Notes: a model not told the origin generated them from the letters alone. DNA of 64,000 nucleotides from an uncultured Chloroflexia bacterium (GCA_963715085.1 CAVQQU010000005.1:163881-227880); one strand, 5' to 3'. Positions 1 to 64,000 are shown, counted from the first letter of the stretch. Numbers and translations: made by a program.

Positions 1-5
1 ACGCC

Positions 6-491
6 ATGGAGGAGTACGCGTACGACCTCCTGATCTGCATCCCGCCCCACAAGGGCGCCCAGGTCGTGATCGACTCGGGCCTGGCCCCGAAGTCGGGCTG
101 GGTCCCGACCGACCGCCACTCGCTGCAGGTCAAGAAGACGGCCGCGCCCGGCACGAAGGACGAGGACGTCGAGCGCTACCGGAACATCTACGCCCTCGGC
201 GACGCCACCGACCTGCCGCTCTCGAAGGCCGGCTCGACCGCGCACTTCGAGGCGCCGGTCGTCGCCGAGCGCGTGGCGGCCGCCGTCCTGGGCCGCAAGC
301 CGTCCGGCAAGCACGCCCTCTACAGCGGCAAGGTGATGTGCTTCTTCGAGGTCGGCGACGGGAAGGGCACGATGCTCTCGTTCGACTACGACAACCCGCC
401 GAAGCCGCCCAAGCCGAACCAGCTCTGGCACCTGGGCAAGATCGTCTTCAACAAGACCTACTGGCGGACCGTCCCGAAGGGTCGCGTCTAG
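6..491 (+). CDS. C-terminal fragment of an FAD-dependent pyridine-nucleotide-disulfide oxidoreductase, possibly sulfide:quinone or NDH-2-like; the 5' end is truncated by the window edge
   Basis: In-frame ORF with protein-like composition and the motifs YALGDATDLPLSKAGSTAHFEAPVVAE and GKVMCFFEVGDGKG. The N-terminus lies outside the window. Confidence 0.5.
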   Translation: MEEYAYDLLICIPPHKGAQVVIDSGLAPKSGWVPTDRHSLQVKKTAAPGTKDEDVERYRNIYALGDATDLPLSKAGSTAHFEAPVVAERVAAAVLGRKPSGKHALYSGKVMCFFEVGDGKGTMLSFDYDNPPKPPKPNQLWHLGKIVFNKTYWRTVPKGRV

Positions 492-608
492 GACGACCGG
501 CGGGTCGCGCCCCGCGGCTCCACCGGTGGCCGGGCCGTCCCTCGTGGAGGGCCCGGCCGCGTCGCGTCCGGGGCCTGCCCGGCGCGTACGGCTCCGTACA
601 ATCGGGGC

Positions 609-1955
609 ATGACGGAGCAGCTTCCCGGCACGCCTGCCGGTCGCGTCTTCCCGCGCGTCTTCGGACGCCGCCTCCCGGTCGCGGTCCGCGCGTCCGGCGC
701 CACGATCTGGGATGCGGAAGGCCGCGCCTACCTCGACGCGGCCGGTGGGGCGGTCGTGGTCGGGATCGGCCACGGGCGGGCCGAGGTGGCGGCGGTGATG
801 GCGGCCCAGGCCGGCCGCATCGCCTACGCCCACGGCACCGCGTTCACGACGGATGCGCTGGAGGCATACGCCGCGGAGGTCGGGCCGCTGCTGCCCCTCG
901 ACGCGCCGGCCGTCTACCCCGTGTCCGGCGGGTCGGAGGCGATCGAGACCGCCCTCAAGATGGCGCGGGCCTACCACCTCGCCCGCGGCGAGTCCGGTCG
1001 CGACGTCGTGATCGCCCGCTGGGGGAGCTACCACGGCAACAGCCTCGGCGCCCTCGACCTCTCGGGCCGCGAGCCGCTGCGCCGCCCGTACGCCCCGTGG
1101 CTGGGGCGCTTCCGCCACGTCTCCACGCCGTACCCGTACCGGGCCGGCCAGGCCGCCGCCCACGCGCTTGGCGACGCGGCGGCGCTGGCGGCGGAGCTGG
1201 AGGCGGCGATCGTGGCCGCGGGCGAGCGCCGCGTGGCGGCCTTCGTGGCGGAGCCGATCGTGGGGGCCACCCTGGGCGCGGTCGCCCCGCCGGACGGCTA
1301 CTGGCCGGCGGTCGCGGAGATCTGCGCCCGGCACGGGGTGCTGCTCATCGCCGACGAGGTGATGACCGGCTTCGGGCGGACGGGGCGCTGGTTCGGGAGC
1401 GACCACTGGGGGCTCCGGCCGGACATCCTGGTCGCGGCCAAGGGCGCCACGTCCGGCTACTGGCCGTTCGGGTTCGCGGCGGCGAGCGGGCCGGTCTACG
1501 AGGCGATCGCGGCCGGTGGGTTCGTCCACGGCTTCACCTTCAGCCACTCGCCCGTGGGCGCGGCCGTCGCCCGCGAGGTCCTGCGGATCCTGCGCGAGGA
1601 GGACCTCGTGGCCGCGTCCGCGGCCAAGGGCGAGCGGCTGCGGTCGTTGCTGCGGGACCGGCTGGGCGACCATCCGCACGCCGGCGACATCCGCGGCAGC
1701 GGGCTGATGGTGGGCGTCGAGCTCGTCGCCGACCGGGCCACCACGGCGCCCTTCCCGCGGGCGGAGCGGCGGATGGAGGCGGTGGTGGCGGCCGCTCGCG
1801 AGCGGGGCGTGCTGGTCTATTCGGGGACCGGGGCCGCGAACGGCGTCGACGGCGACACGGTCCTCCTGGGGCCGCCGTTCGTCACGACCGACGACGAGCT
1901 CGTCCGGATCGCCGACGGCGTGGCCGGGGCGATCGAGGCCGCGACGGCCGGGTAG
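609..1955 (+). CDS. Class III (omega) aminotransferase, PLP-dependent
   Basis: Intact 448 aa ORF. It carries the ATIWDAEGRAYLD motif and LIADEVMTGFGRTGRWF. The PLP-lysine context (AKGATSGY) is present. Confidence 0.85.
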   Translation: MTEQLPGTPAGRVFPRVFGRRLPVAVRASGATIWDAEGRAYLDAAGGAVVVGIGHGRAEVAAVMAAQAGRIAYAHGTAFTTDALEAYAAEVGPLLPLDAPAVYPVSGGSEAIETALKMARAYHLARGESGRDVVIARWGSYHGNSLGALDLSGREPLRRPYAPWLGRFRHVSTPYPYRAGQAAAHALGDAAALAAELEAAIVAAGERRVAAFVAEPIVGATLGAVAPPDGYWPAVAEICARHGVLLIADEVMTGFGRTGRWFGSDHWGLRPDILVAAKGATSGYWPFGFAAASGPVYEAIAAGGFVHGFTFSHSPVGAAVAREVLRILREEDLVAASAAKGERLRSLLRDRLGDHPHAGDIRGSGLMVGVELVADRATTAPFPRAERRMEAVVAAARERGVLVYSGTGAANGVDGDTVLLGPPFVTTDDELVRIADGVAGAIEAATAG

Positions 1956-2029
1956 CGCGACGGCGCGAGTCGGCGAGGCGCTGCTGCGCGCGGCGCCCTG
2001 CCGGCCGCCGGTGCGCCCGGGCGGCCGGC

Positions 2030-5824: not shown

Positions 5825-6789
5825 ATGGCGCCCTTCGTGCAGACCGTCCTCGGGCGGATCGAACCCTCCGACCTCGGCTTCACCCTGCCCCACGAGCACA
5901 CCCAGTGCCAGCTGTGGACCGTTCCGGAACGCTTCGACTACTGGGAGCTGACCGCCGACGAGGAGCTGATCGCGGCCGAGCTCGGGCGGTTCCGGGATGC
6001 TCGGCGGCACCTGCGTCGTCGACGTGACGCTCCCGGGGATCGGCAGGAACCCGGGCTGGCTGCGCCGCATCGCCGCGGCGCACCGGCCTCCACATCGTGA
6101 TGGGGACCGGCTGGTACCGCGAGCCGTACTACCCGCCCGACGCCCTCATCGACCGGCGCAGCGTGGGCGAGCTGGCCGAGGTCATGATCCGCGAGTTCGA
6201 GGAGGGCGGCCCGGGCAGCGAGGAACGGACGGGACGCGTGTCCGACCCGGGATCATCGGCGAGATCGGGACCCACAAGCCGTGGGTCAGCGCTCAGGAGG
6301 AGCGGGTCTTCCGCGCCTGTGGCCGCGCGTCGCGGGTGACCGGCATGGCGGTGACGACGCACGCCGTCATGTCGCCGGTCGGGCTGCGCCAGCTCGAGAT
6401 CCTCGAGGAGGCTGGGGCCGACCCGTCGCGCGTGGTCATCGGCCACTCCGACTCGTCACCCGGTGCTCGACCACTGGCTGGCGATCGCCGCCCGGGGCGC
6501 CTCGATCGAGTGCGACTTCCTCGGGATGTCGTTCACGCCGATGGAGCGCCGCGGCGAGCCGCGGGTGATCGAGCTGATCCTGCGGCTGCTCGATCGGGGC
6601 TACGGCGACCGGGTCCTCCTCTCGCAGGACGTCTGCGACAACAGCCAGCTCACGTTCTACGGGGGCAACGGCTACACGTACCTCCAGGAGACGTTCCTGC
6701 CGCGGCTCCGCGAGCGGGGCGTCGGCGAGGACGAGATCCGCCGGATCACGGTGGAGAACCCGCGGCGGATCCTGGCCATCGCGGGGTAG
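5825..6789 (+). pseudogene. Phosphotriesterase-family (PTE/PHP) metal-dependent hydrolase; the reading frame is broken at least four times
   Basis: PTE hallmarks are spread over frames 2, 0, 1, 0, 1: GFTLPHEH, GGTCVVDVT, HIVMGTGWYREPYYP, PGIIGEIGTHK..., SIECDFLGMSF...NPRRIL. Confidence 0.6.
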
Positions 6790-7412: not shown

Positions 7413-8693
7413 TCAGATTGCGCGCGAGACGGCACGCGCGAGCGCCCGGGCGGCCCGGTCGCGCGGGAACGTGGCTCGCGTCGCGCCGTGGAAGGCGCGG
7501 TACGCCGCGAGGGCCTCCGCCAGTGCCGGCACGAACCCCTCCGCGGCCAGCGGGTCGAACCCGTCCTCCCACCACAGGCCGAGGACGCGCACCGCGCGCG
7601 TGGAACGCTCGAAGCGCGGCTCGATGCGCCCGACGAAGCTGGTCGCCGAAGAGGAGCGGCAGGACGTAGTAGCCCCAGCGCCGCCTGGCGGCCGGCACGT
7701 AGACCTCCCAGAGGTAGTCGAACCCGAAGAGGGAGCGCAGCAGGTTGCGGTCCCAGGCCAGCGGGTCGAGCGGGGCGAGGAACGTGACGGACAGCGGGGC
7801 GCCGCCCGGAGGGCGTCCCTCGGCGACCTCGCGCTCCGCCTGGGCGAGGAGCGACAGCTCGTCGGTTACCACGTGGTGGACGCCGCGGATGCCCTCGATC
7901 GCGACCGGCAGGAGCTCGCCGCGCTCGACGAGCTCGGCGAGCAGTGGCGGCGCGCCGCGGGTGCGGCGACCCGACTTCGAGGGGTGCGACCGGCCGGAGC
8001 CCGAGGAAGATCTCGGCCTGGCCTGTCGCGCCCAGCAGCCCGTGGGCCCGGTAGCGGCTGAGCAGGCGGTGGAGGATCTGCTCGCGCTCGGGAACGCGTT
8101 CCTCGAGCAGGCCGGCCGGGAAGAGGCGTTCGGCAAGGTCGTAGAAGCGGCGGTTGCCTTCGCGGCGCGCGATGCCGAGGATGCCGGCCTCGGCCAGCGC
8201 CTCGAGGACGGCCCGCGACTTCAGCGTCGGCCCCCAGTACCAGTCGATCGCCTCGCTGCGGTCGAGGTCGGCAGTGGAGACGGGGCCGTCGCGCCGGATC
8301 CGGTCGAGGAGCTCGGCGACGTGGTCGCCGTGGTCGCTGAAGGTCTCGCCCTCGTGGGCACGGCGTGCGCGGTCCCAGGTGAGGCGGTGCCATGGCAGCT
8401 CGCGGGTCGGGAGGATGCTGAGACCCTTGTTGTAGGCCTCGAAGAGGAGGCGGCGGTCGTACAGCAGGTGCTCGGTCCACGATCGCCGGTAGCCGGCGAT
8501 GCGCGCGTGGAGCACGAGGTCGTGGTTGCGGCCGGCCACCTCGAGCGGGTCGAACTGGAGCGAGCCGAGGCGGTCTACGACCGCGAGAACGCTCTCCTCG
8601 GTGTCCGGCAGTGACCGCGCCGGGGCGAGGAGATGCCGGAGCACCAGGAATCGTCGCGCGATGGCCTGGGACAGTGAGCGCGGGGCGGACATG
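7413..8693 (-). pseudogene. Winged-helix DUF1006/YcaQ-family protein (AlkZ-like DNA-glycosylase family); frameshifted two or more times
   Basis: The N-terminus LVLRHLLAPAR...FDPLEVAGRNHDLVLHARI, then LLAELVERGELLPVAIEGIRGVHHVVTDE and FDYLWEVYVPAARRRWGYYVLPLLFGDQL. These lie in three minus frames. The stop is at 7413. Confidence 0.6.
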
Positions 8694-8834
8694 GCGCGGA
8701 TCCTAGCCGGTCGAGTCATGCCGACGCCGCACCCACGCCCCGTCGAGCCTACCCGAACGCCCGGAGACGGGCCGGACTATCGCCTCGACCCCGATTCTTC
8801 GCTGATCCGATATTCTTGTCGTCAAGTCAACACT

Positions 8835-9371
8835 TTGCATGGAGCAAATGATTTGCCTGAAGTCCCGGTGCCCCACGATGGTCGCGTCGATCCAGCTCGC
8901 GAGGCTGTCATCGCCCGGATCGTGGCCACCTTCGAGGCGATGATGCACAGCGTGGCCGCGGCCCATGCCCCCGAGCTGCTCGAGGTGGGCGTGACGATGT
9001 CGCAGGCGAAGGCGCTCTACCTCGTCCAGGCCGCGCCCGGCCTCCGGATGTCGGACCTCTCGGCGCGCCTCGGCGTCTCGCTCTCGACGGTCAGCGGCGT
9101 GGTCGACCGGCTGGTCGACCAAGGCCTGTTGGATCGCAAGGACGACCCGGCTGACCGTCGCCACGTGGTCCTGTGGCTGACCGACGCCGGGACGACCCAG
9201 CTCGAGCTCTTCCGGGAGCTGAACGAGGGGCAGATCCGGGCCCTCCTCGCCCGCATCGATGCTGCCGACCTCGGCGTCATCGGTCGGGCCCTCGACGTCC
9301 TCGCCGCCGCGGCCGCCCGAACGGCGGCCGCCCCACCTGCGTCCCTCGCCACTGAAGGAGAACCCGCGTGA
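8835..9371 (+). CDS. MarR-family transcriptional regulator
   Basis: wHTH core MSQAKALYLVQAAPGLRMSDLSARLGVSLSTVSGVVDRLVDQGLLDRKDDPADRRHVVLWLTDAG. The start is uncertain (TTG 8835, TTG 8853 or GTG 8868). The stop overlaps the RND start (GTGA). Confidence 0.8.
   Translation: MHGANDLPEVPVPHDGRVDPAREAVIARIVATFEAMMHSVAAAHAPELLEVGVTMSQAKALYLVQAAPGLRMSDLSARLGVSLSTVSGVVDRLVDQGLLDRKDDPADRRHVVLWLTDAGTTQLELFRELNEGQIRALLARIDAADLGVIGRALDVLAAAAARTAAAPPASLATEGEPA
8844..8856. promoter_or_regulatory. Candidate MarR operator: inverted repeat GCAAAT-g-ATTTGC over the marR 5' end, in a locally AT-richer divergent promoter region
   Basis: A perfect 6+6 palindrome with a 1-nt centre, seen directly in the sequence. 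It sits between divergent YcaQ-like and marR starts. Confidence 0.4.
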
Positions 9372-12300
9372 GCCGTCTTACCGAGCTGTCGGTCGCCAAG
9401 CGGAGCGTCACGCTCCTCCTCGCGGTCGGGCTCTTCTTCGCCGGCATCTCGGCCTGGGGCAGCCTCCAGCAGGAGCTGCTGCCCGACATCGACTTCCCCG
9501 TGATCACCGTGATCGCCCCCTATCCGGGCGTCGGCGCGGCGGACGTCACGGAGCAGGTCACGAAGCCGATCGAACAGGCCATCTCGGGTGTGCCGCGCCT
9601 GGAGGCGCTGTCGTCGTCATCGGCCAACTCCATCGCGATCGTGGTCGCCCAGTTCGAGTTCGGCACCGACGTCAAGGAAGTGCGCTCGACGATCGAGCAG
9701 AACCTCCAGACGGCCGGCCTGCCCCCGAGCGTCGCCCCGGAGGTTGCCGCGCTCAACATCAACGCCTCGCCGGTGATCATCGCGTCTGTCGCCGGCGCCG
9801 GTGAAGACGGCCTCGACGCCGCCGCCGAGGTCGCCCGGAACGACGTTGTGCCCGCGCTGCAGGCGATCGATGGCGTGGCGACCGTCGACCTGACCGGCGG
9901 GCTCGAGACGCAGGCGGTCGTCACGCTCGACCCGGCGAAGCTCATCGAGACGGGCATCTCGGTCGCGCAGGTCACGGGCATCCTCACCGCCAACAACCTG
10001 ACCCTGCCGTCGGGCCAGATCTCGTCCGACGGCACGAACATTCCCGTGTCGACGATCGGGGTGATCAGCTCGATCGCCCAGATCGAGAACCTCGTCGTCG
10101 GCGTCAAGCTGCCGACGACTCCGCCCGCGATCCCTGGCACCGCCCCGACCCTGCCGGTCGTGCCGCCCGGAACCGACCCGGGCGCGGTGCCGACCGTGCC
10201 CGTCGAGCCGACGCCGATCTTCCTCAAGGACATCGCGACCGTCGAGGAAGCCGGCGTTGCGACGACCGGCTATGCCCGCACCGACGGCGTGCCCTCGCTG
10301 ACGCTGACCGTCACCAAGACATCGACGGCGAACACGGTCGAGGTCGCCGACGCGGTCACGGCCGAGCTCGAGGCGATCGGCGCCGCGAATGCCGAGACTG
10401 TCTCGATCACGGTGATCTCCGACCTCTCCACCTTCATCAAGGATTTCCCGCGACGGCCTGCTCAAGGAGGGCGGCCTGGGGGCGTTCTTCGCGATCCTGA
10501 CGATCTTCCTGTTCCTCTTCAGCATCCGGGCGACGCTGGTCGCCGCGGTCAGCATCCCGCTGTCCGTGTTGACGGCGCTCGTGGTCATGCAGATCACCGG
10601 CGTCACGATCAACGTCATGACTCTGGGCGGCCTCGCGGTCGCGGTCGGGCGCGTGGTCGACGACGCGATCGTCGTCCTGGAGAACATCTATCGCCACCGG
10701 GCACTGGGCGACGACCGCCTGACCGCCTCCCTGCGGGGTCCGCGCGAGGTGGCCGGGGCGATCACGTCGGCGACGCTCACGACCGTTGCCGTCTTCCTGC
10801 CCCTGGGCCTGGTCGGCGGCATCGTCAGTCAGCTCTTCCTGCCCTTCGCCTTGACCGTCACGTTCGCGCTACTGGCTTCGCTCGTCGTGGCCCTCACCGT
10901 GGTACCCGTGCTCGCTTACATGTTCATCGGGCAGGTCAAGCTCAACGTCGACGAGGATGGCGAGCCGAAGAACTCCCCCTGGATCCGTGCCTACACGCCG
11001 ACGATCCATTTCGTCCTGCGGGGCCGGGCCACGAAGTGGGCCGTCCTGGCGATCTCGACGATCCTCTTCATCGGGGCGACGGCCCTCGTCCCGCTCCTCC
11101 CCACGCAGTTCATCGATGCCGGAGGGGAGAACCTCCTGCAGGTGACAGTCGCCCCACCGGCCGGCACCAGCTCGGAGGCCGTGCTCGACCGGGCGATCGA
11201 GGCCGAGACCATCCTCCTCGCCGACCCCGAGGTCGAGGCGGTTCAGACCAGCGTCCCGGGCGAAGGGGACACGAGCTTCGGCACCGTCCAGGCCGCCCTC
11301 AGCGGCCGGCCGGCCAACAGCGCCACGCTCACGGTTCGACTCTCGGGTGAGGTGGACCTGACCACCTATGCGCAGAAGCTCTCGAACGACCTCGCCCCGG
11401 TCAAGACCGACGGCTACGACGTCGCCGTTGCCCAGACGGCCGGGTTCAGCTCGAATGGCCTGAACGTCGTGGTCAGCTCCGAGAATCCCGATGACGTCGC
11501 CGTGGCCACCGACGAGGTGATGGCGGCCCTCTCCGACAACGACGACCTCCTCAACCTCAAGTCCGACCTTTCGAAGGGGACGCCCGAAGTCCAGGTCGTT
11601 GTCGATCCCAACAAGGCGATCGGCGTCGGCCTCACCGCGGCCCAGGTCGCCGGCGAGGTCCGCGCGATCCTCGTCGGCACTCAGCCCACCACGATCCCGC
11701 CCGGCGAGGGCGGCGAGCCGATGCCGGTTGCCGTCCAGGTTGACCCGGAGCTCGTCACGAGCGTCGAGACGCTGCGGGCGCTGCCGGTCGGCACGACCGT
11801 CACCGTTCCTCTCGAGACGATCGCCGCGGTCGACGAGGTCGATGCCCAGGGCAGCATCACCCGCGTCGACCAATCCCCTGCGGCCACCGTCTCGGCCGAG
11901 ATCGCCAGCGACGACACCGGAGCGGTCTCCATGGAGGTTCAGCAGGAGATCGACGACCTCCAGGCGAGCGGGGCAATCCCGGCCGGCGTCACGATCACCC
12001 TGGCCGGCGTCACCGAGCAGATGAACGAGGCGTTCGGCAACCTCTTCATCTCGATGGGCGTCGCCATCCTGCTTGTCTACGTGATGATGGTCCTGACCTT
12101 CAACTCGCTCGTCACGCCCTTCATCATCCTGTTCAGCCTTCCGCTGGCCCTGATCGGCGCCTTCCCGGCGCTCTACCTGACCGGCAAGCCGATCGGCGTC
12201 AGCGCCCTCATCGGGTTCCTGATGCTCATCGGGATCGTGGTCACCAACGCCATCGTCCTGCTCGACCTCGTCGAGCGGCTGCGGAGCGAGGGCCACTCCA

Positions 12301-12629
12301 CGAAGGACGCCCTCATCGAGGGCGGCCGGACGCGAGTGCGCCCGATCCTGATGACGGCGATCGCGACGATCCTGGCCCTGATCCCGCTGGCCGCCGGCCT
12401 CTCCGAGGGCTCGATCATCGCGGCGGAGCTGGGCACCGTCGTCATCGGCGGGCTCTTCTCGTCGACCTTCCTGACTCTCCTCGTGATCCCCGTCCTGTAC
12501 TCCCTCGTCGACGGCGGCAAGTCGGGCCTGGCCCGGCGCTTCCGTCGTGCCGAGCCGATGGCGCCCGACGCCATGACGGCCGATCCGGGCGGCCCGACGC
12601 CGCCCGTCCAGCCGGCCCCGGCCGGCTGA
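9368..12629 (+). pseudogene. RND-superfamily efflux transporter permease (HAE/AcrB-like, about 1087 aa); one frameshift near 10440
   Basis: The N-terminus MSRLTELSVAKRSVTLLLAVGLFFAGI with a periplasmic loop. After ...DLSTFIKD the frame switches from 2 to 0 (DGLLKEGGLGAFFAILTIFLF...), then continues intact to 12629 with 12-TM RND topology. GTG 9368 is translationally coupled to marR. Confidence 0.8.
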
Positions 12630-12723
12630 CGATCGACCCGGCGCGTGCCTTCGGGCGATCCGGCACTTGGCCGGTTCGCCCGAGCCGTGCACGCTCCGGG
12701 TCACAAGCACGGAGGTGTTGACG

Positions 12724-13043: not shown

Positions 13044-13085
13044 CGATCAGCGCTTCAGGGGCGCTCGCGCGCCCTTCGAGTGGGA

Positions 13086-14705: not shown

Positions 14706-14747
14706 TTGACGACAGCGCATGGATATCCGACAATTCAACTCGGAATT
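14706..14747 (+). promoter_or_regulatory. Candidate sufB promoter TTGACG-N17-GACAAT with an overlapping inverted repeat AATTC-aactcg-GAATT
   Basis: Local GC dip about 150 nt upstream of sufB. Hexamers and the palindrome were read directly from the sequence. Confidence 0.3.
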
Positions 14748-43641: not shown

Positions 43642-43669
43642 CTGACCCCGCGCCGATGCAGCACGAAGC

Positions 43670-49976: not shown

Positions 49977-52277
<2,301 letters not shown>

Positions 52278-52363: not shown

Positions 52364-53053
52364 ATGGCCCGCACGATCCTCGTCGTCGATGATGAGCCGA
52401 CCCTGCGCGAGACGCTTGCCGAGGCGCTCGACGCGGACGGCTTTCGCGTGATCACGGCTGCTGACGGACGCGAGGCGCTGGTGCAGTTCCGCGAGCACCG
52501 CCCTGAGCTCGTGGTCCTGGACCTCATGCTTCCCGAGCTCTCCGGGATCGAGGTGTGCCGGGTCATCCGCCAGGAGTCAGACGTCCCGATCCTGATGCTC
52601 ACCGCGAAGAGCTCGGAGGTCGACAAGATCGTCGGCCTGGAGCTGGGGGCCGATGACTACGTCACGAAGCCCTTCAGCCTTCGCGAGCTCAGCGCACGCA
52701 TCCGGGCGCTCCTGCGGCGGTCGGAGCAGGTCGCGTCGGAGAGCCTCGCCACGGTCACCGTCGGCGAGCTGACCGTGGACCTGACCGGTCATCGGCTGCT
52801 GCGCGCCGGGGAGGTCGTCCCGCTCAAGCCGAAGGTGTTCGAGCTGCTGGCATTCCTCGTCCGCCATCCGGGGCAGGTCTTCAGCCGAGAGCAGCTCCTC
52901 CAGCAGGTGTGGGGCTATGACTACGCCGGCGAGACGCGCACCGTGGACGTCCACGTCCACTGGCTGCGCACGGCGATCGAGCCGGACCCGGCAGCGCCGA
53001 CCCTGCTCCAGACCGTGCGGGGTGTCGGCTACGTGCTCCGCCGCCCGACCTGA
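52364..53053 (+). CDS. OmpR/PhoB-family response regulator, RegX3-like
   Basis: Intact 229 aa. Receiver D-D-K residues. High similarity to the RegX3 segment SSEVDKIVGLELGADDYVTKPFSLRELSARIRALLRR. Winged-helix C-terminus. Confidence 0.85.
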   Translation: MARTILVVDDEPTLRETLAEALDADGFRVITAADGREALVQFREHRPELVVLDLMLPELSGIEVCRVIRQESDVPILMLTAKSSEVDKIVGLELGADDYVTKPFSLRELSARIRALLRRSEQVASESLATVTVGELTVDLTGHRLLRAGEVVPLKPKVFELLAFLVRHPGQVFSREQLLQQVWGYDYAGETRTVDVHVHWLRTAIEPDPAAPTLLQTVRGVGYVLRRPT

Positions 53054-53730: not shown

Positions 53731-54747
53731 GGTGCAACCTCCGGGAAGTGCGTCACTTGATGGCGAGATGCGTTCAGCACGACCCACGAGAGCGCCCCCA
53801 TGGTCGCGGCGGCGGGAAGCGTCACCACCCACGCGACGAGGATGCTGCGGGCGACACCCCAGCGGACGCCATGGGCGCCCTTGCTCGTCCCGACGCCCAT
53901 GATCGCGCTGGAGATGACGTGCGTCGTCGAGACCGGCATGCCGAAGTGGGCCGCCGTGTAGATGATCGTGGCCGCCGTCGTCTCGGCCGCGAAGCCGTGG
54001 ATCGGCTCGAGCTCGACGACCTTGTGGCCCATGGTCTTCATGATCCGCCAGCCGCCGGCGGCGGTGCCCAGCGAGATGGCAGTGGCCGAGAGAACGATGA
54101 CCTCGGGGGGAACTTCGATCGAGTCGATGACGCCGGCCGAGAAGAGCGCCAGCGTGATGATGCCCATCGTCTTCTGGGCGTCGTTGGATCCGTGAGCGAA
54201 GGCCATGAACCCGGCGGACACGACCTGGAGACGCCGGAAGCGGCGCGCGAGCGGTCGGCGATCGGCGCGCCGGAAGATCCAGAAGAGGGCGATCATCAGC
54301 GAGAACGCGCCGGCGAAGCCGATCACCGGCGAGGTGACGAGCGGGATCAGGACCTTGTTGACGATGCCCTCGATGTTGAGGGCGCCGACCCCCGCGGCGA
54401 CGATCGTGGCACCGATGAGCCCGCCGATCAGGGCGTGGCTGCTGGAGCTCGGGATGCCGAGGCGCCACGTGATCAGGTTCCAGGCAATCGCCCCGATCAG
54501 CGCCGCGCCGACCACCGCCTGGGTGGTCGTCGACTCGTCGACGATGCCCTGCCCCGATCGTCTTGGCGACGGCCGTCCCGGCGAACGCCCCGATGAAGTT
54601 GAACGCGGCCGCCATGGCGATCGCGTGCGCAGGGCGCAGAGCCCGCGTCGCCACCGACGTGGCGATCGCGTTGGCCGTGTCGTGGAAGCCGTTGATGTAG
54701 TCGAACGCGAGCGCCAGGACGATGATGACGAGGAGGGTTACGTCCAC
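53718..54747 (-). pseudogene. pit: PiT-family inorganic phosphate transporter; one frameshift near 54450
   Basis: GTG start and AFDYINGFHDTANAIATS (the PiT signature). A second signature GSNDAQKTMGII. It overlaps DUF47 by 13 nt. Confidence 0.7.
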
Positions 54748-54902
54748 GGCAGGAAGCGCTACAGACGCCGATGGTGGTCGCGCATGGCCCCAGTATGTTG
54801 ATCTTGTTAACGGCTCGCAGGACGGCTTCGCGCGCACAGTGCCGACAGAGCGTTAACCGCCGGTCGATCTGCCGTTCATCAGCCCGGGCCAGTCTTCGCG
54901 CC

Positions 54903-55492: not shown

Positions 55493-57037
55493 GTGACGGA
55501 TCATCTCGAGACCCTCCGCGCGATGCGGGTGCGGGCGCTGGAGGGCGGCGGCCCCGAGCGCGTCGCGCAGCAGCATGCCCGGGGCAAGCTCACGGCCCGG
55601 GAGCGGCTGGCGCTGCTCCTCGACGACAGCTCGTTCCAGGAGATGGGCGCCCTGGCCACCCACGACGAGACCGAGTTCGGCCTTGCCGACCAGCGCTACC
55701 CGGGCGACGGCATCGTGGCCGGCTTCGGCAAGATCAACGGCCGGCGCGTGGCCGCCTTCGCGCAGGACTTCACGGTCCTGGGCGGGTCATTCAGCCGGGT
55801 CCAGTCCAACAAGATCAGTCGGATCCAGGATCTGGCACTCGAGAGCGGCGTCCCGCTCATCGGCCTCAACGACTCCGGCGGGGCGCGGATCCAGGAAGGC
55901 GTCGCGAGCCTTGCGGCGTACGGCGAGATCTTCGTGCGCAACGTGCTGTCCTCCGGTGTCATTCCCCAGATCTCGCTGATCCTGGGGCCGTGCGCCGGCG
56001 GCGCGGTCTACTCGCCGGCGCTCACTGACTTCGTGGTGATGGCCCGCGGTACCTCATCGATGTTCCTGACAGGCCCCGACGTCGTCGCGGCGGTCACCGG
56101 GGAGAGAGTCACGATCGACGAGCTCGGCGGGGCCGACGTCCACGACACCCGGAGCGGGGTCGCCCACCTGGTCGCCGACACCGAGCCGCAGGCCCTCGAG
56201 CTCGTGAAGCTCCTGCTCGGCTACCTGCCCCAGAACAACAACGAGGACCCGCCGCAGGTCACGCCCCACGATCCGGCCGATCGGATGGACGACGAGCTCA
56301 ACACCATCGTCCCGGACGAGGAGGCGGAGGCCTACGACGTCCGCGACGTCCTGGCCATGGTGTTCGACCGCGACAGCTTCCTCGAGATCCATCCCGCCTA
56401 CGCGCCGAACGCCGTCGTCGGCTTCGCCCGCCTCGACGGGTACTCGGTCGGGATCGTCGCCAACCAGCCGGCCGTGATGGCCGGCGTCCTCGACATCGAC
56501 GCCAGCGACAAGATCGCCCGCTTCATCCGGATCTGCGATGTGTACAACATCCCGATCGTCACGTTCGTGGATTGCCCGGGCTTCCTGCCCGGGATCGACC
56601 AGGAGTACCGGGGCGTGATCCGCCACGGGGCCAAGATCATCTACGCCTATTGCGAGGCGACGGTCCCGAAGATCTCGATCGTCACCCGCAAGGCGATGGG
56701 CGGCGCCTACGTGGCGATGTCATCGCGCCAGATGCGGACCGACGTGGCGTTCGCCTGGCCGGGCGCGCAGATCGCGGTGATGGGGGCCGAAGCGGCCGTC
56801 CGGATCCTGTACCGGCGCGAGGTCCGCGAGGCCGCCGACCCGGCCGCGGCGGAGGCGGCCTACGTCGCCCGCTACCGCGAGGCGTTCTTCAATCCCTACC
56901 GGGCCGCCGACGTGGGTCAGATCGACGAGGTCATCGAGCCGCGCGAGACGCGGCCGCGCCTCATCCGGGCGTTGGAGCTGCTGCGCACGAAGGTCCAGCA
57001 GAACCCACCCAAGAAGCACGGCCTCTTCCCGGCTTAG
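55493..57037 (+). CDS. Acyl-CoA carboxyltransferase subunit (propionyl-CoA carboxylase beta / methylmalonyl-CoA decarboxylase alpha type)
   Basis: Intact 514 aa. GKLTARERLALLLD at the N-terminus and two CT subdomains (GGAYVAMSS...). Confidence 0.85.
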   Translation: MTDHLETLRAMRVRALEGGGPERVAQQHARGKLTARERLALLLDDSSFQEMGALATHDETEFGLADQRYPGDGIVAGFGKINGRRVAAFAQDFTVLGGSFSRVQSNKISRIQDLALESGVPLIGLNDSGGARIQEGVASLAAYGEIFVRNVLSSGVIPQISLILGPCAGGAVYSPALTDFVVMARGTSSMFLTGPDVVAAVTGERVTIDELGGADVHDTRSGVAHLVADTEPQALELVKLLLGYLPQNNNEDPPQVTPHDPADRMDDELNTIVPDEEAEAYDVRDVLAMVFDRDSFLEIHPAYAPNAVVGFARLDGYSVGIVANQPAVMAGVLDIDASDKIARFIRICDVYNIPIVTFVDCPGFLPGIDQEYRGVIRHGAKIIYAYCEATVPKISIVTRKAMGGAYVAMSSRQMRTDVAFAWPGAQIAVMGAEAAVRILYRREVREAADPAAAEAAYVARYREAFFNPYRAADVGQIDEVIEPRETRPRLIRALELLRTKVQQNPPKKHGLFPA

Positions 57038-57045
57038 GCCGAGTG

Positions 57046-57471
57046 ATGGAGAACCTCGGCTTCGGCCTGGCCGTCGCGGTCGTCGGGATGGGCATCGTCT
57101 TTGGCCTGCTCGCGGTCATGTGGGCCCTCCTCACGCTCGCCCTGAAGCTCGAGCATCGCCACGATGGCGTCGGGCCGGCGGTTGCGACGGCGCCGGGCCC
57201 CGTGGACGAGGGGCCCGGCATCTCCGTGCCGCGGCCGAGGGTCGTGCCGAGCGCCGCCGGCACCCACCGCCTCTCCGGCGTGCCCGAGGGCCTCGATCCC
57301 CGGCTCGTCGCCGCCGTCACCGTGGCCGTCCTCCGCCACGCGGAGACCCGGCGCCGGCAGGCCGCCCCCGCCATGCGCAGCTACTGGCCGGGAAGCCTCC
57401 TGTTCGCGAGCCGCTGGGTGGCGGCGGGCCGGATGCGCCAGGGCCAGACTTGGCGGCGGCGGGCGAGGTAG
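57046..57471 (+). CDS. OadG-like gamma subunit of a Na+-translocating decarboxylase (small membrane anchor)
   Basis: The N-terminal TM MENLGFGLAVAVVGMGIVFGLLAVMWALLTLA, typical of OadG/MmdD. 9 nt after the carboxyltransferase gene. Confidence 0.5.
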   Translation: MENLGFGLAVAVVGMGIVFGLLAVMWALLTLALKLEHRHDGVGPAVATAPGPVDEGPGISVPRPRVVPSAAGTHRLSGVPEGLDPRLVAAVTVAVLRHAETRRRQAAPAMRSYWPGSLLFASRWVAAGRMRQGQTWRRRAR

Positions 57472-57474
57472 TCG

Positions 57475-57993
57475 ATGCGCCGTTACACCGTCGCCATCGG
57501 TGACGAGACCTACACGATCGACGTCCACCAGCTTGCCGCCGACCGCTTCGAGGTCACCGTCGGCGACCTGGCCTTCGAGGCGACGCTCGAGGAGGAGGGC
57601 GATCTGCCGGGCGCGCTGATCTCGCCGGAGATGGTGGCGCCCGAGGAGGCACGGTCGGCGCCTCTGCCCCGGGTGATCGCCCAGCCCGCCCCGCCGTCGA
57701 GCCCGGGACCCAGGCCCGGTCCGGCCGCCAGGAGCTCGCCCGGTGCGGAGACCGCACCCGCCGGCGGACGCACCGACGTCCTTGCGGCACCGATGCCCGG
57801 GGTCGTCCTGGAGGTGCTCGTCGCTCCCGGCACGGCCCTGCGTCGAGGTGACCCGATCCTGGTTCTCGAGGCGATGAAGATGCGCAACACGATCCGCTCG
57901 CCGCGCGACGCGGTCGTGCTGGAGATCGCCGTCGAGGCCGGCCGGACCGTCGGACCGGGCGACGCGCTCGTCCGTCTCGGCGCCGCCGGGTGA
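57475..57993 (+). CDS. Biotin carboxyl carrier protein subunit
   Basis: The biotinyl-lysine motif EAMKM in a C-terminal biotinyl domain. A Pro/Ala linker. Confidence 0.8.
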   Translation: MRRYTVAIGDETYTIDVHQLAADRFEVTVGDLAFEATLEEEGDLPGALISPEMVAPEEARSAPLPRVIAQPAPPSSPGPRPGPAARSSPGAETAPAGGRTDVLAAPMPGVVLEVLVAPGTALRRGDPILVLEAMKMRNTIRSPRDAVVLEIAVEAGRTVGPGDALVRLGAAG

Positions 57994-58009
57994 GCCGGGC
58001 GGGCGACGG

Positions 58010-59131
58010 ATGAGCGGCGCCACCGTCGACCAGCTGCTCGCAGGGATCACGGGCCTCACGTGGCAGTCCCTGGTGATGTTCGCCGTCGCCGGGATCCTGC
58101 TCTACCTGGCGATCGTTCGCGAGTACGAGCCGCTGCTTCTCCTGCCGATCGCGGCGGGCTGCCTTCTCGCCAACCTGCCCCTCTCGCCGATGATCGGAGA
58201 GGAGGGGCTCCTCACGCTCCTCTACGACGCGGGGATCGAGAACGAGCTCTTCCCGCTCCTCATCTTCATCGGGATCGGCGCCATGACCGACTTCGGCCCC
58301 TTGCTGGAGAACCCGCGGATGATCCTGCTCGGCGCCGCCGGGCAGTTCGGGATCTTCGGCGTCCTCATCCTGGCCCTCCTCCTCGGCTTCAGCCGCGAGG
58401 AGGCCGCGTCGATCGGGATCATTGGCGCCATCGACGGACCGACCTCGATCTACGTCAGCGGGATCCTGGCCCCGCACCTCCTGGGACCCATCACCGTCGC
58501 CGCCTACAGCTACATGGCCCTGGTGCCGGTGATCATGCCGCCGGTCATGCGGGCCCTCACCAGCCCCGAGGAGCGCCGGATCAGGATGCCGTACGGCGGC
58601 CGCGCGGTGAGCCGACGGACCCGGATCCTCTTCCCGATTGGGGTGACGCTGCTCGTCGGGACGCTCGTGCCGTTCGCCACGCCGCTCGTCGGCTCGCTCA
58701 TGCTCGGCAACCTCATGCGAGAGTCGAGCGTCGTGGAGCGGCTCACGAAGATGTCCTCGAACGAGCTGGCGAACATCGTCACGCTCTTCCTCGGCCTCGC
58801 GATCGGGTCGACGATGGTCGGCGAGCAGTTCCTGAACGGGACGACGCTGGCGATCCTCGGCCTCGGCATCCTCGCCTTCGCGCTCGACACGGCGGCCGGG
58901 CTGGTCTTCGCCAAGGGCCTCAACCGGCTCGCCGGCGGGACCTTCAACCCGTTGATCGGGGCGGCCGGGATCAGCGCCTTCCCGATGGCGGCGCGGGTCG
59001 TCCAGCGCGTGGCGCAGGAGGAGGACTTCGAGAGCTACCCGCTGATGCACGCGATGGGGGCCAACGCCGCCGGCCAGGTCGCCAGCGTCGTCGCGGGTGG
59101 GGTGCTGCTGGCGCTGATGGCCGCGGCCTGA
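58010..59131 (+). CDS. Na+-translocating decarboxylase beta subunit (OadB/MmdB/GcdB family)
   Basis: Intact 373 aa polytopic protein with strong OadB-family similarity throughout (LLYDAGIENELFPLLIFIGIGAMTDFGPLL...). Confidence 0.85.
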   Translation: MSGATVDQLLAGITGLTWQSLVMFAVAGILLYLAIVREYEPLLLLPIAAGCLLANLPLSPMIGEEGLLTLLYDAGIENELFPLLIFIGIGAMTDFGPLLENPRMILLGAAGQFGIFGVLILALLLGFSREEAASIGIIGAIDGPTSIYVSGILAPHLLGPITVAAYSYMALVPVIMPPVMRALTSPEERRIRMPYGGRAVSRRTRILFPIGVTLLVGTLVPFATPLVGSLMLGNLMRESSVVERLTKMSSNELANIVTLFLGLAIGSTMVGEQFLNGTTLAILGLGILAFALDTAAGLVFAKGLNRLAGGTFNPLIGAAGISAFPMAARVVQRVAQEEDFESYPLMHAMGANAAGQVASVVAGGVLLALMAAA

Positions 59132-59150: not shown

Positions 59151-60531
59151 TCAGGCGACGACGCTCGGGAGGTCTCGATAGGCGCCTTTCCGCCACGTGC
59201 CGTCGACCATGTCGCCCATGATCCGGGTGAGCAGGTCGGCGAACCCGGGGTCGAGGATGTGCATGTCGGCCGCGAGCACGTCGAGGTGCTCGTTCGAGGG
59301 CTCGACCGCCGTCGCCACCGTCCGCCAGGTGATCGCCGCCTTGCGCGACCACGCCGGCACTTCGGGATCGGCCTCCCAGGTGGGTCCGTCGCCGTTACCC
59401 TCCGCCCAGCCCCGCGCCCGCGTGGCCGTGACCTCCGGCTGGTCATAGGCGGAGAGGCCCCGCAAGGGCACGACGAAGGCCGTGGGCCCGGTCGCCCGGC
59501 AGAGGCGCGCGGCGACCAGGCGGGCCACCTCGGCGCTCTCGTCGGGCGTCGGCCGGATGGTCGTCACGTTCGCGTTGTGGAGATACGGCGCGCGCGTGCC
59601 GTGGTGGCCCGCGCGCCGGCCATCGGCGATCTCGTCGAGGATCCGCTGGGGGACCACCTCGAGCGCGCCATGGGACGCCTGGTCGAGCCCGCCGGGGACG
59701 ACGACCTGGGGGATGCCGAGTTCGCCGGCGGCCGTCAGGCGCTCGCCCTCCCAGGTGTCGGGGGCGCGGTAGACGCTGCCGAGGTGACCGCCCATGAGCT
59801 CGGCGATCGTGAGGTCGATGACCGCGGTGATCTGCCCGGAGCGGACGAGGTCCTCCATCGTCGCTCCGGGCACGCCGACGGCGTGGAAGACCGCGACGTC
59901 CCAGCCGCGCGCCTCCATGAACGCCGAGCAGCGGGCAACCGTCGGTGTCGTCGAGCCGTAGGCCGTGATCGCGCAGAGCGGGCGCCCACCGGCCGTGACC
60001 TCGGGCAGCCTCGCCATGCCGACAATGGCCGCGGCGGCGTTCGCGACCGCGCGCCGGGTCACGACGTTGATGCCCTGCTCGGCAGTCGGGTTGACCATCC
60101 AGATGTCCTTGGTGCCGACCCAGCGGCTGATGTCGCTGGCGACCATGTCGCTCAGCATCACCTTCGGGACGCCGAACGGCAGCGCCCGCATGACCATCGT
60201 CGCCGTCGTCGTCCCCACGGCGCCGGCCCACGAGATGATCCCGTCGCAGCGACCGGCGGCGTGCAGCTCCAGGATCTTGGCCGCGCCGGCGTGCCCGACC
60301 AGGTCGATGGCCGCCGCCCTGGGGGCCGCGTAGACGGCTTCCGGCAGCCGTGCCGGTCGCGGCCAGCACCTCGCCCAGCGAGACGTCCGCCCAGTCGACG
60401 GCGCCGCCCAGGCTCAGGTCCATGATGAGCGGCCTGCCGCCGTGCACCGCGACCTGCTCGGCGAGGAACCGGATCTCGACGCCCTTCGTGTTGCACATCC
60501 CGGTGACGACGATCGTCGGCGCCTCGCTCAT
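59151..60531 (-). pseudogene. UPF0261 (Tm-1-like) family protein; frameshifted two or more times
   Basis: AGGAGG RBS. MSEAPTIVVTGMCNTKGVEIRFLAEQV. The body GTTTATMVMRALPFGVPKVMLS. Confidence 0.6.
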
Positions 60532-60709
60532 GGGTACCTCCTGGGACGGGCCGCTGTGGGCCACGTGTCAGACGGTGGCCCCCTGCCCGTGTCCATGATG
60601 GCGCTCCAGCTTCCCTCGCACCTGCCCCCAAGGAGCTCCCGGCGCGCACCGCGTGTCCGGGGCGGCGCACACCGCGTCGCCCGGGGCGGCGCGCCGGTAT
60701 CCTTCGCGT

Positions 60710-62411
60710 ATGCGCCTGAGCCATCTCTTCTTCACGACCCTCCGCGACGACCCCTCTGACGCGGAGATGCCGAGCCATCGCCTCCTGGTCCGGGCCGGCT
60801 ACGTCCGCCAGCTGGGCGCCGGCATCTACTCGCTGCTGCCGCTCGGCTTCCGGGTGGCGAAGCGGGTGGAGCAGGTGATCCGCGAGGAGATGGACCGGAT
60901 CGGCTGCCAGGAGATGGAGATGCCGGTCGTCCATCCGGCCGAGCTCTGGAAGGAGACCGGGCGCTGGTACCAGATCGGCCCCGAGATGGCCCGCTTCAAG
61001 GACCGCGGCGGACGCGACATGGTCCTGGCCATGACCCACGAGGAGGTCGTCGCGAGCCTCCTGGCCGACCTCGTGAAGAGCTACCGCCAGCTGCCGATGA
61101 TGGTCTACCACTTCCAGACGAAGTGGCGCGACGAGCCGCGTTCCCGGGGCGGGCTCATCCGCGTCCGCGAGTTCGTCATGAAGGACTCGTACACCTGCGA
61201 TCTCGACGAGGCCGGCCTCGACGTCGCCTACGAGAAGCACTACGAGGCGTACACCAGGATCTTCGAGCGGCTGGGGTTGCGGGCCGTCGCGGTCGCCTCG
61301 GACGTGGGGATGATGGGCGGCACGGGTGCCCACGAGTTCATGGTCCTCAACGAGTACGGCGAGGACGTCCTGGTCCTGTGCGAGACGTGCGGCTTCTCCG
61401 CCAACCGGCAGGTCGCGACCGTCCGCGTGTCCGAGCCGCCGGCGGGCGAGCCACTCCCGCTCGAGGAGGTGGCCACTCCCGGCACCACCACGATCGCGGA
61501 TCTCGCTGCGTTCCTCGGGATCAGCCCCGAGGAGACGGCCAAGGCGACCTTCTTCGTGGACGGCGACGGGCGGCTCATCACCGCCATCGTCCGGGGCGAC
61601 ATGGAGGTCAACGAGACCAAGCTCGCCAACGCGACCGGCGCCCGCGCGCTTCGGCCGGCCCAGGTCGAGGAGATCAAGGCGGCCGGGATGGAGCCCGGCT
61701 ACGGCTCGCCGATCGGCGCCCGCGGCGCCTTCATCCTCGTGGACGAGCTGGTGGCTCGCTCCTCCAACCTCGTGGCCGGCGCCAACCGGGAGGGGTTCCA
61801 CTACCGCAACGTCAACGTCGGCCGCGACTTCACGCCCGACCTTGTCGCGGACCTGGCCAACGCCCGCGAGGGCGACGGATGTCCCACCTGCGGCTCGCCG
61901 GTCATCCTGCGCAACGGGATCGAGGTCGGCAACATCTTCAAGCTGGGCACGAAGTACACGACCGCCCTCGGCGCGACGTACCTCGGCGAGGACGGCATGG
62001 CGCATCCCATCGTCATGGGCTCCTATGGCATCGGCGTCGGGCCGCGCCCTCGCCTGCGTCGTCGAGGCCCACCATGACGCGAAGGGGATCGCCTGGCCGG
62101 CCGAGGTGGCGCCCTACGCGGCCCACGTCGTGACCGTGTCGGCGGCGAAGGACCCACGCGTCACCGAGATCGCCGAGCGCCTCCACGACCAGGCCCGCGA
62201 CGCCGGCCGCGAGGTCATCTGGGACGACCGCGACGAGTCGCCGGGCGTCAAGTTCACCGACGCCGAGCTCCTCGGGATGCCCCTGATCGTCACGATCAGC
62301 CCGCGCTCGCTGGCGGCGGGCGGCGCCGAGGTGACCGTGCGGGCGACCGGCGAGCGGACGATCGAATCGCTCGAGGCGGTCGAAGCGCGCCTCCTGGCCA
62401 AGGCCGGGTAA
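60710..62411 (+). pseudogene. proS: Proline--tRNA ligase; one frameshift near 62040
   Basis: Bacterial-type ProRS with an INS domain. The class II motifs. The C-terminal anticodon-binding domain is in a second frame. Confidence 0.8.
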
Positions 62412-62437
62412 GCAGGCCGGCGGCGGCCCCGATCCCG

Positions 62438-63650
62438 ATGGGTGCGCTGCTCGAGTACGGCGCCCTTCTCGCGCTCGTCGCGGCCGCGCTGCTCCTGCTC
62501 GCCGGATGGCTCCAGCGACGCGGCGCCCGGCAGGGGTCGTCCAGGCCCGCGCCGGCCGATGTGGCGGTCGAGGCGCGCCTCGCGGCGGCCGACGAGCGGG
62601 CGGCGGCTGCTCACCGCGACGCGGCCGTCCTCGTCGAGCTCGTCGGCGTTGGAGCCGTCCACCTGGACCCTGACCTCACGGTGACGGCCGCGAACGAGGC
62701 AGCCCATCGGCTGGTGGGCCGGCGACCGGGCGCGATGGTCGGAGGCAGCGTTCTCGAAGCGTTCACCGATCATCACGTCGAGGAGATCGCCCGCACCGCG
62801 CTCGCGTCCGGTTCGGCAGTCGGCGAGCTCACCGTGCGGATCGAGCACGGTCCGACGCTGCTGGCCCGCGCCCAGCGGATGCCGGCGAGGTGACGCCTGG
62901 CTCGTGCTCGAGGACGTCTCAGAGCTGCGGCGCCTGCAGCGCATTCGCACCGAGTTCCTCGACAACCTCAGCCACGAGCTGCGCACGCCGCTGACGACCA
63001 TCAGCCTCCTCGCGGAGACGCTGGCCGCCGACGCGGACACCCTGCCGCCTAGGGCCGCGGAGCGGGTGGCGAAGATCGAGGTTGAGACCGGGCACCTCGT
63101 CCAGATGGTCAACGAGCTGCTCGACCTTTCGCGGATCGAATCGGGGATCGCGACCGAGGCCCTCGATGCCGTCGACCTCGGACGCCTGGCGGTCGAGACG
63201 GCGGACCGCATGCGACTCTTCGCCGAGCGGCAGGGCGTGATCATCGAAGTCCGTGCCCCGCCCGCCCTCCCGCTCGTACGCGGCGACCGCGAGCGGCTCG
63301 GCCAGGCGCTCCTGAACCTGCTCCACAACGCCGTCAAGTTCAGCCCGGCCGGATCGACCGTGGCCATCATCGTCCTGGTCGCCGAGACGGAGGTGATCGT
63401 CGCGGTGGAGGATCACGGCCCGGGGATCCCGCGGACCGCACTGCCGAGGATCTTCGAGCGCTTCTACAAGGTCGACCGGGCTCGCACGCGCGGCGCCGGC
63501 GGCACCGGCCTCGGTCTTTCGATCGTCCGCCACGTCGTCGAGGCGCACGGCGGCCGGATCTGGGCGGAGTCCGAGGAGGGCGTGGGGTCGACCTTCTCGT
63601 TCGCGATCCCGGTCGCAGGCCCGGACCTCGCAGCGACGCCGGGCGGCTGA
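62438..63650 (+). pseudogene. PAS-domain sensor histidine kinase, SenX3-like; one frameshift near 62890
   Basis: N-terminal TM and PAS. H-box LSHELRTPLT. N, G1 and G2 boxes (HNAVKF, EDHGPGI, GGTGLGLSI). Confidence 0.75.
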
Positions 63651-63652
63651 CC

Positions 63653-64000
63653 GTGCTCCTGCTGGCCCATCGGGGCGACCACCGCGAGGCACCGGAGAAC
63701 ACGCTCGCGGCCTTCGCGGCCGCGCTGGCGATTCCCGGGGTCGACGGCCTCGAGCTCGACCTCCGGGCATCTGCGGACGGCATCGCAGTCGTCCTCCACG
63801 ACGCCTCGTTGGCGCGCGTGCAGCGCCGGAGCATCCGTGCGTCGCGGCTTGCTGCTGGAGAGCTGGCTGCGTTCGGCGTTCCCGGCCTCATCGATGTGCT
63901 GGCTGCCTGCCCCCCCGGCGCGTTCCTCGATGTCGAGCTGAAGGAGGATCTGGGCGAGGCCGCGCTGGCGCCGCTGCGGGCTGCCCGGGGTCGCGACGAC
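63653..64000 (+). CDS. Glycerophosphodiester phosphodiesterase family protein; the 3' end is truncated by the window edge
   Basis: GTG start overlapping the HK stop. The GDPD N-terminal motif HRGDHREAPENTLAAF. Confidence 0.6.
   Translation, partial: MLLLAHRGDHREAPENTLAAFAAALAIPGVDGLELDLRASADGIAVVLHDASLARVQRRSIRASRLAAGELAAFGVPGLIDVLAACPPGAFLDVELKEDLGEAALAPLRAARGRDD

Follow-up and report, generated by a model that had tools for sequence, protein, structure and literature searches.

Are the changes of reading frame that interrupt about half of the genes in a 64,000-nucleotide stretch from an uncultured Chloroflexia bacterium (GCA_963715085.1, contig CAVQQU010000005.1, positions 163881-227880; hereafter the window) mutations carried by the organism, or were they introduced when its genome was assembled? 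An initial annotation had favoured assembly error over genome decay. Our curated total is ~55 frame-breaking insertions or deletions (indels) in 25 of ~53 genes, or 0.86-0.98 per kb, all of them ±1 nt apart from a few of 2 nt. The indels are really present in the window sequence, which the comparisons below confirm. These comparisons also make it very probable that the frameshifts are consensus errors of a long-read-only metagenome assembly, and not mutations in the organism.

The GC content is 69-75% across the window and ~72% overall. At this GC content, lists of open reading frames (ORFs) are dominated by shadow frames, and a naive listing (237 ORFs of at least 100 amino acids (aa), mostly shadow frames) was dropped. 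For this reason, frames were called with a seven-state Viterbi model of GC content by codon position. The Viterbi path contains dozens of same-strand frame switches, and the segment translations, once joined, read through cleanly. Every exit that returned to the same frame proved to be an ordinary gene boundary. A strict filter, requiring flanking segments of at least 90 nt on both sides and no stop of the old frame within ±24 nt, retained 39 junctions, where 4.0 were predicted from short-read relatives (Poisson P = 2e-25).

The stitched gltX translation was used to retrieve the best 80 related loci, each of which carries one gltX match of full gene length. The best matches have 62-83% protein identity and come from metagenome-assembled genomes (MAGs) that carry the labels Chloroflexia, Chloroflexota or Candidatus Limnocylindrales. 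A large share of them are 'MFD' isolates with contigs named contig_N, and the nearest GTDB genomes are also MFD MAGs. Judged by these relationships, the source genome is an uncultured soil Chloroflexota of the class Limnocylindria. An actinobacterial origin, suggested by a first-sight resemblance, was dropped, the gltX relatives being Chloroflexota.

Three lines of evidence place the breaks in the window itself. Firstly, end-to-end Pfam matches to the stitched translations span 32 junctions, as well as the junctions in the UPF0261 and proS genes, and the frame-corrected proteins align over their full length with intact orthologous ORFs at 85-99% identity. Secondly, in a custom frameshift-aware protein-to-DNA alignment, practically all relatives that cover a site put the event at the same place in the window (for example 51091-51094 in 12/12, 62039 in 13/13, 17830 in 11/11 and 27919-27922 in 11/11). 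This alignment took as input 316 intact ORFs from related loci, restricted to ORFs in which GC content is truly higher at the third than at the second codon position. It replaced a chaining of blastx matches across frames, which was too noisy, as off-frame shadow ORFs of the relatives align too. Thirdly, nucleotide alignments show an extra base only in the window at 51064-51100 (75/75 relatives), ~52035 (72/75), 62035-62043 (45/46) and 47162-47170 (49/49). The first of these sites is the gltX slip near 51100 that had been singled out in the initial annotation. It is borne out in full: the reading is [12 protein letters not shown] in frame 0 and [14 protein letters not shown] in frame +1, and comparison with each of the 75 aligned relatives gives the window a single extra base at 51088-51095.

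Two sister assemblies provide the closest comparison. L001 (ENA ERZ25039462 contig_96219, 116 kb) was reached via mdh and L162 (ENA ERZ25039478 contig_37332, 188 kb) via a cluster member; the contig names of both ENA assemblies are Flye-style. The window and L001 share 87% identity over 23.9-28.4 kb and ~95% over 28.4-44.6 kb, rising to 97-99% outside a few divergent patches, and L162 has 85-93% nucleotide identity. The alignment of the window with L001 contains 176 gap openings to 496 mismatches, a ratio that is absurd for coding DNA, and almost all gaps are 1-2 nt long. In a three-way comparison over 7.3 kb, 21 indels are found only in the window, 25 only in L001 and 85 only in L162. Four genes interrupted in the window, those for hydantoinase, the luciferase-like protein, aldehyde dehydrogenase and upp, are whole in L162. 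The permease and PALP ORFs are intact in L001, which has indels where the window keeps a single frame, namely across its CBS-domain region and in the gamma-lyase gene towards the 5' end. For gltX, the window shows two breaks and L162 shows five at other positions. Break positions are thus independent between assemblies of close strains. For events seen against L001 alone, the broken side was decided by the codon-position signal of the window, by third sequences, or by both; the window signal was used because an L001 ORF that is itself frameshifted runs on without a stop out of frame and pulls the alignment with it.

The broken genes, with the sign of each shift and the support for it, are as follows.

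5825-6788, plus strand: phosphotriesterase-family gene, four frameshifts at ~6000 (+1), 6080 (+1), 6215 (-1) and 6456 (+1); Pfam PTE 1-297/298 runs over all four junctions, and alignment to five relatives gives the same four events.
7439-8649, minus strand: AlkZ-like glycosylase gene, two frameshifts at 7635 (+1) and 7945-8005 (+1); Pfam 1-329/329 over both junctions, aligned relatives 11/11 and ~10/11.
9368-12629, plus strand: RND (ACR_tran) transporter gene, one frameshift at 10446 (+1); spanned by the Pfam match, 5/5 aligned relatives, nucleotide alignment to L086 concordant.
16297-17770, plus strand: sufD, three frameshifts at 16320-16365 (net -1), ~16593 (+1) and ~16756 (+1); aligned relatives 4/7, ~10/11 and 11/11, nucleotide alignment to the short-read contig L082 concordant. 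Two breaks are firm and the one near the N-terminus is probable.
17771-18090, plus strand: Rieske protein gene, one frameshift at 17831 (-1); spanned by Pfam, 11/11 aligned relatives, 22 relatives concordant at the nucleotide level.
18124-20324, minus strand: holin-like/phosphodiesterase membrane protein gene, three frameshifts at 18530, 19911 and 20269 (all +1); from the Viterbi frame caller, 2/2 aligned relatives each. A holin-like domain with four transmembrane segments (PF04020) is fused here to a type I phosphodiesterase/alkaline-phosphatase-like domain.
21367-23986, minus strand: penicillin amidase gene, two frameshifts at 23024 (+1) and 23493 (+1); Pfam 2-674/675 over both junctions, aligned relatives 10/10 and 8/8.
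24067-25124, minus strand: ornithine cyclodeaminase-family gene, two frameshifts at 24350 (+1) and 24525 (-1 or +2); 11/11 aligned relatives, Pfam match spanning 24524/24527.
27698-28118, plus strand: AsnC regulator gene, one frameshift at 27918 (+1); 11/11 aligned relatives, window-specific in 3/3 nucleotide alignments.
28430-29229, plus strand: lgt, two frameshifts at 28563-28581 (-1) and 28684 (+1); Pfam LGT 1-240/240 over both junctions, 10/10 aligned relatives for each break.
30225-31659, plus strand: cystathionine beta-synthase gene (cbs), two frameshifts at 30613 (+1) and 30791 (+1); Pfam PALP 2-295/295 over both junctions, 4/4 aligned relatives, an intact 393-aa PALP ORF here in L001.
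31665-33490, plus strand: GNAT gene with a frameshift at 32163 (+1) and cystathionine gamma-lyase gene with one at 32756 (+1), possibly also 32233/32270; from the Viterbi frame caller, Pfam Cys_Met_Meta_PP 2-380/381 over 32753/32758, L001 indels at the same sites.
35792-37455, plus strand: amidohydrolase (Amidohydro_3) gene, two frameshifts at 36668 (+1) and 37005 (+1); Pfam 2-472/472 over both junctions, site 37006 window-specific in the three-way comparison.
38400-39817, minus strand: dihydropyrimidinase/hydantoinase gene, two frameshifts at 39652 (+1) and 39784 (+1); window-specific in the three-way comparison, both seen against an intact 471-aa L162 ORF.
39831-40836, minus strand: luciferase-like monooxygenase gene, three frameshifts at 39983 (+1), 40248 (-1) and 40383 (+1); Pfam spans the three junctions, three-way comparison concordant, 94% identity to an intact 335-aa L162 ORF.
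41999-43600, plus strand: cytosine/uracil-type permease gene, at least 11 frame-breaking indels, with isolated events at 42695, 42991, 43014, 43026, 43038, 43207 and 43590; three-way comparison concordant.
43769-45308, minus strand: aldehyde dehydrogenase gene, one frameshift at 44195 (+1); Pfam 8-461/461 over the junction, 95% identity to an intact 513-aa L162 ORF.
45705-47040, plus strand: class-III aminotransferase gene, two frameshifts at 46557 (+1) and 46736 (+1); window-specific in 10/11 and 12/12 relatives, frameshift-aware alignment concordant.
47108-47756, minus strand: upp, three frame-breaking indels at 47165-47168 (+1), 47715 (+1) and 47738 (-1); 49/49 and 34/40 relatives concordant at the nucleotide level, 97% identity to an intact 218-aa L162 ORF.
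50776-52277, plus strand: gltX, two frameshifts at 51088-51095 (+1) and ~52031-52035 (+1); 75/75 and 72/75 relatives concordant, Pfam tRNA-synt_1c and Anticodon_2 matches spanning both junctions, residues 1-493 of L003 gltX matched at 85% identity with no stops.
53737-54748, minus strand: PitA (PHO4) phosphate transporter gene, one frameshift at 54549 (+1); Pfam PHO4 1-350/350 over the junction, 11/11 aligned relatives.
59156-60567, minus strand: UPF0261 (Tm-1-like) gene, one frameshift at ~60348 (+1); from the Viterbi frame caller, Pfam UPF0261 1-172/176 over the junction.
60711-62410, plus strand: proS, one frameshift at 62039 (+1); 45/46 relatives concordant at the nucleotide level, 13/13 in the alignment, Pfam tRNA-synt_2b spanning the junction.
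62411-63630, plus strand: SenX3-like histidine kinase gene, one frameshift at ~62888 (+1); 10/11 relatives at the nucleotide level, 11/11 in the alignment.

Four loci that read without interruption served as controls.

14891-16300, plus strand: sufB, a single ORF with SUFBD_core 1-232/232; its exact protein is in a public collection, assigned to the 425,513-bp contig described below.
33643-34581, plus strand: mdh, protein 100% identical to that of L001.
52364-53053, plus strand: RegX3-like response regulator gene, without break.
55523-59131, plus strand: Na+-translocating decarboxylase cluster (carboxyltransferase, gamma subunit, biotin carrier, beta subunit (OAD_beta)), covered from end to end by Pfam matches that contain no junction; for the gamma and beta subunits, the public collection has the exact proteins.

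These tables agree with most of what the initial annotation had described. The shifts are indeed widespread, the four control loci are intact as it had stated, and its counts for sufD (three or more), gltX (two), proS (one), lgt (two) and cbs (two) were recovered. In comparison with orthologues each break resolves with a change of ±1 or ±2 nt, as it had expected. Its estimate of one to four switches per broken gene is right in general but fails for the permease gene, and its density of ~0.6 breaks per kb is too low. For upp, one break had been given, and alignment to the intact L162 ORF reveals three.

When ten ORFs of the window were looked up by exact sequence, every one was present in the public protein collection, with NCBI and ENA as sources, on a 425,513-bp contig. 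Among them is a frameshift-truncated 381-aa aminotransferase ORF, and the breaks therefore belong to the deposited assembly. Their presence in the deposited sequence, together with the abundance of broken genes in related assemblies, which can be read as a trait of the lineage, could point to genuine decay, in which a lineage in reductive evolution, like Mycobacterium leprae or recent host-restricted pathogens, accumulates real inactivating mutations. The density of breaks, however, tracks the assembly and not the lineage. Per 10 kb of coding sequence, the window has 6.8 junctions, L001 9.7 and L162 7.5, while 63 short-read or other relatives have 0.69, a tenfold lower value than the window, and 36 long-read MFD MAGs 1.74. 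The long-read MFD MAGs range from 0 (L003, L012) to 21 junctions per locus (L047), so that both the short-read relatives and some long-read ones lie at baseline. Some long-read MAGs that represent related species in GTDB are affected too: over ~18 kb, 21 frameshift-like junctions were counted in L047 and 9 in L043, and none in others, including L003, L012, L068 and L081.

The mutational spectrum also speaks against decay. No in-frame stop is backed by more than one relative in the frameshift-aware alignment of the window, which upholds the earlier remark that no stop-codon mutations match the frameshifts. With ~55 frameshifts, zero supported nonsense changes have P < 5e-6 if nonsense makes up at least 20% of inactivations. 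Neither multi-kb deletions nor transposase domains came to light in Pfam scans of the window. Coding substitutions relative to L001, counted in the locally corrected frame, fall on third codon positions in 523 of 788 cases (66%). This bias is present in every segment and persists downstream of breaks (e.g. 18/19, 24/30, 17/23), a pattern by which the encoded proteins are under purifying selection throughout the window-L001 divergence, and not under relaxed selection. Insertions outnumber deletions by 33 to 6 among the strict junctions (P = 1.4e-5), opposite to the deletional bias of bacteria; Mira, Ochman and Moran are said to have reported in 2001 that bacterial mutation is biased towards deletion. 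Furthermore, the break sites differ between strains only 1-5% apart, which under decay would need frameshifts to be fixed at ~1/3 of the substitution rate.

Decay would also have to account for breaks in genes that are usually indispensable, gltX and proS as well as sufD and lgt, which within the window are broken like any other gene. Broken genes are longer than intact ones (1339 vs 799 nt, P = 2e-4), and under a Poisson model with the observed rate 21-25 genes should be intact, against 28 observed. The breaks strike genes by length, regardless of function. A second lgt paralogue at 37458-38354, 8 kb away, is intact with 99% identity to L001, and the twice-broken lgt may not be the sole copy. 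On the nonsense, selection, deletion-bias, essential-gene and shared-break tests alike, the breaks do not fit genome decay, in agreement with the initial annotation, and we consider decay very improbable.

The permease gene contains a dense burst.

42344-42624, plus strand: indel burst inside the permease gene, with 14 bases inserted and 2 deleted over 280 nt when compared with L001.

Within the burst the coding signal is lost and the mismatch count is ordinary, and the flanks have no more than one gap per 300 nt. Sixteen indel bases between such clean flanks are difficult to reconcile with decay, and the burst resembles sequence of unpolished raw-read quality. The permease nevertheless raises the possibility that most breaks are errors and a minority are real, strain-specific pseudogenes, namely the permease (41999-43600) and the region at 34.4-35.7 kb. 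The indels are over-dispersed, with at least 11 of the ~55 in the permease alone. Between 34434 and 35922, ~1.3 kb lack a coherent coding frame. L001 has a minus-strand gene call of 398 aa with a faint Trypsin match there, which shows 57% protein identity to the window with 11 frame events; the frameless region could represent errors in both assemblies or a fast-evolving gene. The evidence from the permease itself points the other way. Substitutions in its segments still fall on third positions (18/19 and 11/13), and once its shifts are undone it is 93% identical to the intact 534-aa L001 ORF over 11 events, with no stops. Its burst of single-base insertions looks like unpolished reads and not like mutation. 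With nothing positive in its favour, such a mixture of errors and real pseudogenes seems unlikely.

The breaks do not bear the mark of homopolymer miscalling. The initial annotation had expected them mostly in homopolymers or G/C runs, which is not what we find: about 10 of the 28 precisely placed insertions, roughly a third, are adjacent to an identical base, and no run exceeds three bases at any of the sites. This failed test weakens the claim of homopolymer error, not that of consensus error. Isolated gaps have a mismatch within 2 nt in 6 of 34 cases, against a background of 6.8% (P = 0.026), which gives weak support to the idea that the indels sit at strain-polymorphic sites. In a post hoc inspection, four or five of the 28 precisely placed insertions share the context CGT^G -> CGTCG (30791, 32163, 39784, 62039 and also 44195), and these may be a context-specific or modification-linked consensus error.

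This shared context, and the shared sign (+1) of most shifts, is also what might be expected if the shifted genes were decoded in vivo by programmed ribosomal frameshifting or transcriptional slippage. There is, however, no stop codon or slippery heptamer at the sites (the strict filter itself bars stops within ±24 nt), and no A/T homopolymer that would allow slippage. Sister strains and 10-75 relatives encode the orthologues here in a single frame, and the sites differ between the window, L001 and L162. We regard the chance of such recoding as vanishingly small.

Consensus error in a long-read-only assembly therefore remains our preferred explanation, and the initial proposal of indels from a long-read or MAG assembly is supported by the ±1 resolution of the breaks, the purifying selection, the independence of the sister assemblies and the assembly-linked density. 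The assembly would probably derive from Nanopore reads, assembled with Flye and one round of Medaka and left without short-read polishing. Low read depth, or the collapse of closely related co-occurring strains (95-99% average nucleotide identity) into one consensus, might then cause single bases to be gained or lost, mostly gained. The outcome would be about one frame-breaking error per kb, in random genes in proportion to their length, with one 280-nt patch left near raw-read quality. Both the platform with its pipeline, as suggested by the sisters and relatives, and low coverage or strain mixing as proximate cause are what we infer. Among public data sets the most similar is the Microflora Danica long-read catalogue, which is Nanopore-only; Flye --meta --nano-hq was used for assembly and a single Medaka round for polishing. 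Its authors describe a lowered coding density of MAGs with low coverage and see microdiversity as playing a part (PMC12313526). The window presumably stems from this catalogue or from an equivalent pipeline.

Several points weigh against this explanation. The errors would mostly be insertions outside homopolymers, unlike the homopolymer deletions classically associated with Nanopore, which is unusual and not fully explained. The individual indels are judged by sequence comparison and not by read support, and platform and pipeline are known only through inference from sisters and relatives. Where L001 is the sole close comparator, the codon-position signal of the window itself decided which side was broken. 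A few of the breaks, such as those in the permease or the 34.4-35.7 kb region, could be real, which would leave the overall picture unchanged. It is quite improbable that recent real mutations make up such a subset, or that CGT^G -> CGTCG marks a DNA-modification motif that misleads base-calling. If a real subset did exist, it would mean that a free-living soil Chloroflexota population tolerates or rapidly turns over frameshifts in catabolic genes.

The breaks are thus not a biological feature, and the value of recognising them is practical. With about one frame-breaking error per kb in the deposited contig, and likewise in at least two sister assemblies, gene callers split or truncate about half of the genes. 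Public protein collections already contain such truncated products. A pseudogene census, a metabolic reconstruction, a completeness estimate or protein clustering based on this MAG would be misled; since the breaks are very probably consensus errors, pseudogene calls from this assembly would be wrong. Filters aimed at homopolymers only would miss both non-homopolymer insertions in a genome of 72% GC and local bursts of raw-read quality.

Other features of the window concern its gene content and strain structure. The region 38400-47756 is a cluster resembling reductive pyrimidine catabolism, with dihydropyrimidinase, luciferase-like monooxygenase, a CN hydrolase of the beta-ureidopropionase type, cytosine/uracil permease, aldehyde dehydrogenase, class-III aminotransferase and upp. 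L162 contains, at 8749-15057, an additional DHO_dh gene and a 1156-aa AAA_16 gene, both of which the window lacks. The intact cluster at 55523-59131 places a four-gene Na+-translocating carboxylic-acid decarboxylase in a Limnocylindria genome. Identity to L001 jumps at ~28384, from ~87-90% (23.9-28.38 kb) to ~97-99% (from 28.39 kb), a step that resembles a recombination or mosaic boundary between strains that co-occur. The 64-kb window yielded neither tRNA genes nor Rfam families at the gathering threshold.

The window can be compared with three known situations. Like the programmed +1/-1 frameshifts of prfB, dnaX and the IS3 transposases, it shows single-base changes of frame inside continuous coding sequence. 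In contrast to these, it has no conserved slippery site or stimulatory element, the shifts are absent from orthologues, and dozens of unrelated genes are affected. Mass pseudogenisation, as in Mycobacterium leprae, Shigella, Yersinia pestis and recent endosymbionts, likewise interrupts many genes, including housekeeping genes, next to intact neighbours. The window differs from it in the absence of nonsense mutations, large deletions, insertion sequence elements and relaxed selection, in its bias towards insertion, and in breaks that close relatives do not share. The closest resemblance is to the errors of long-read-only Nanopore MAGs built with Flye and Medaka (IDEEL-type errors, low coding density). 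Here too, 1-nt indels split conserved genes, their density depends on the assembly and the break sites differ between sisters, and the source resembles a Flye-named contig in ENA and NCBI. One earlier study describes the classical long-read signature as deletions in long homopolymers (PMC9262707). The window departs from this signature with errors that are mostly insertions outside homopolymers at 72% GC, plus one burst at raw-read level. This profile suggests low depth or the collapse of mixed strains, and not homopolymer miscalling.

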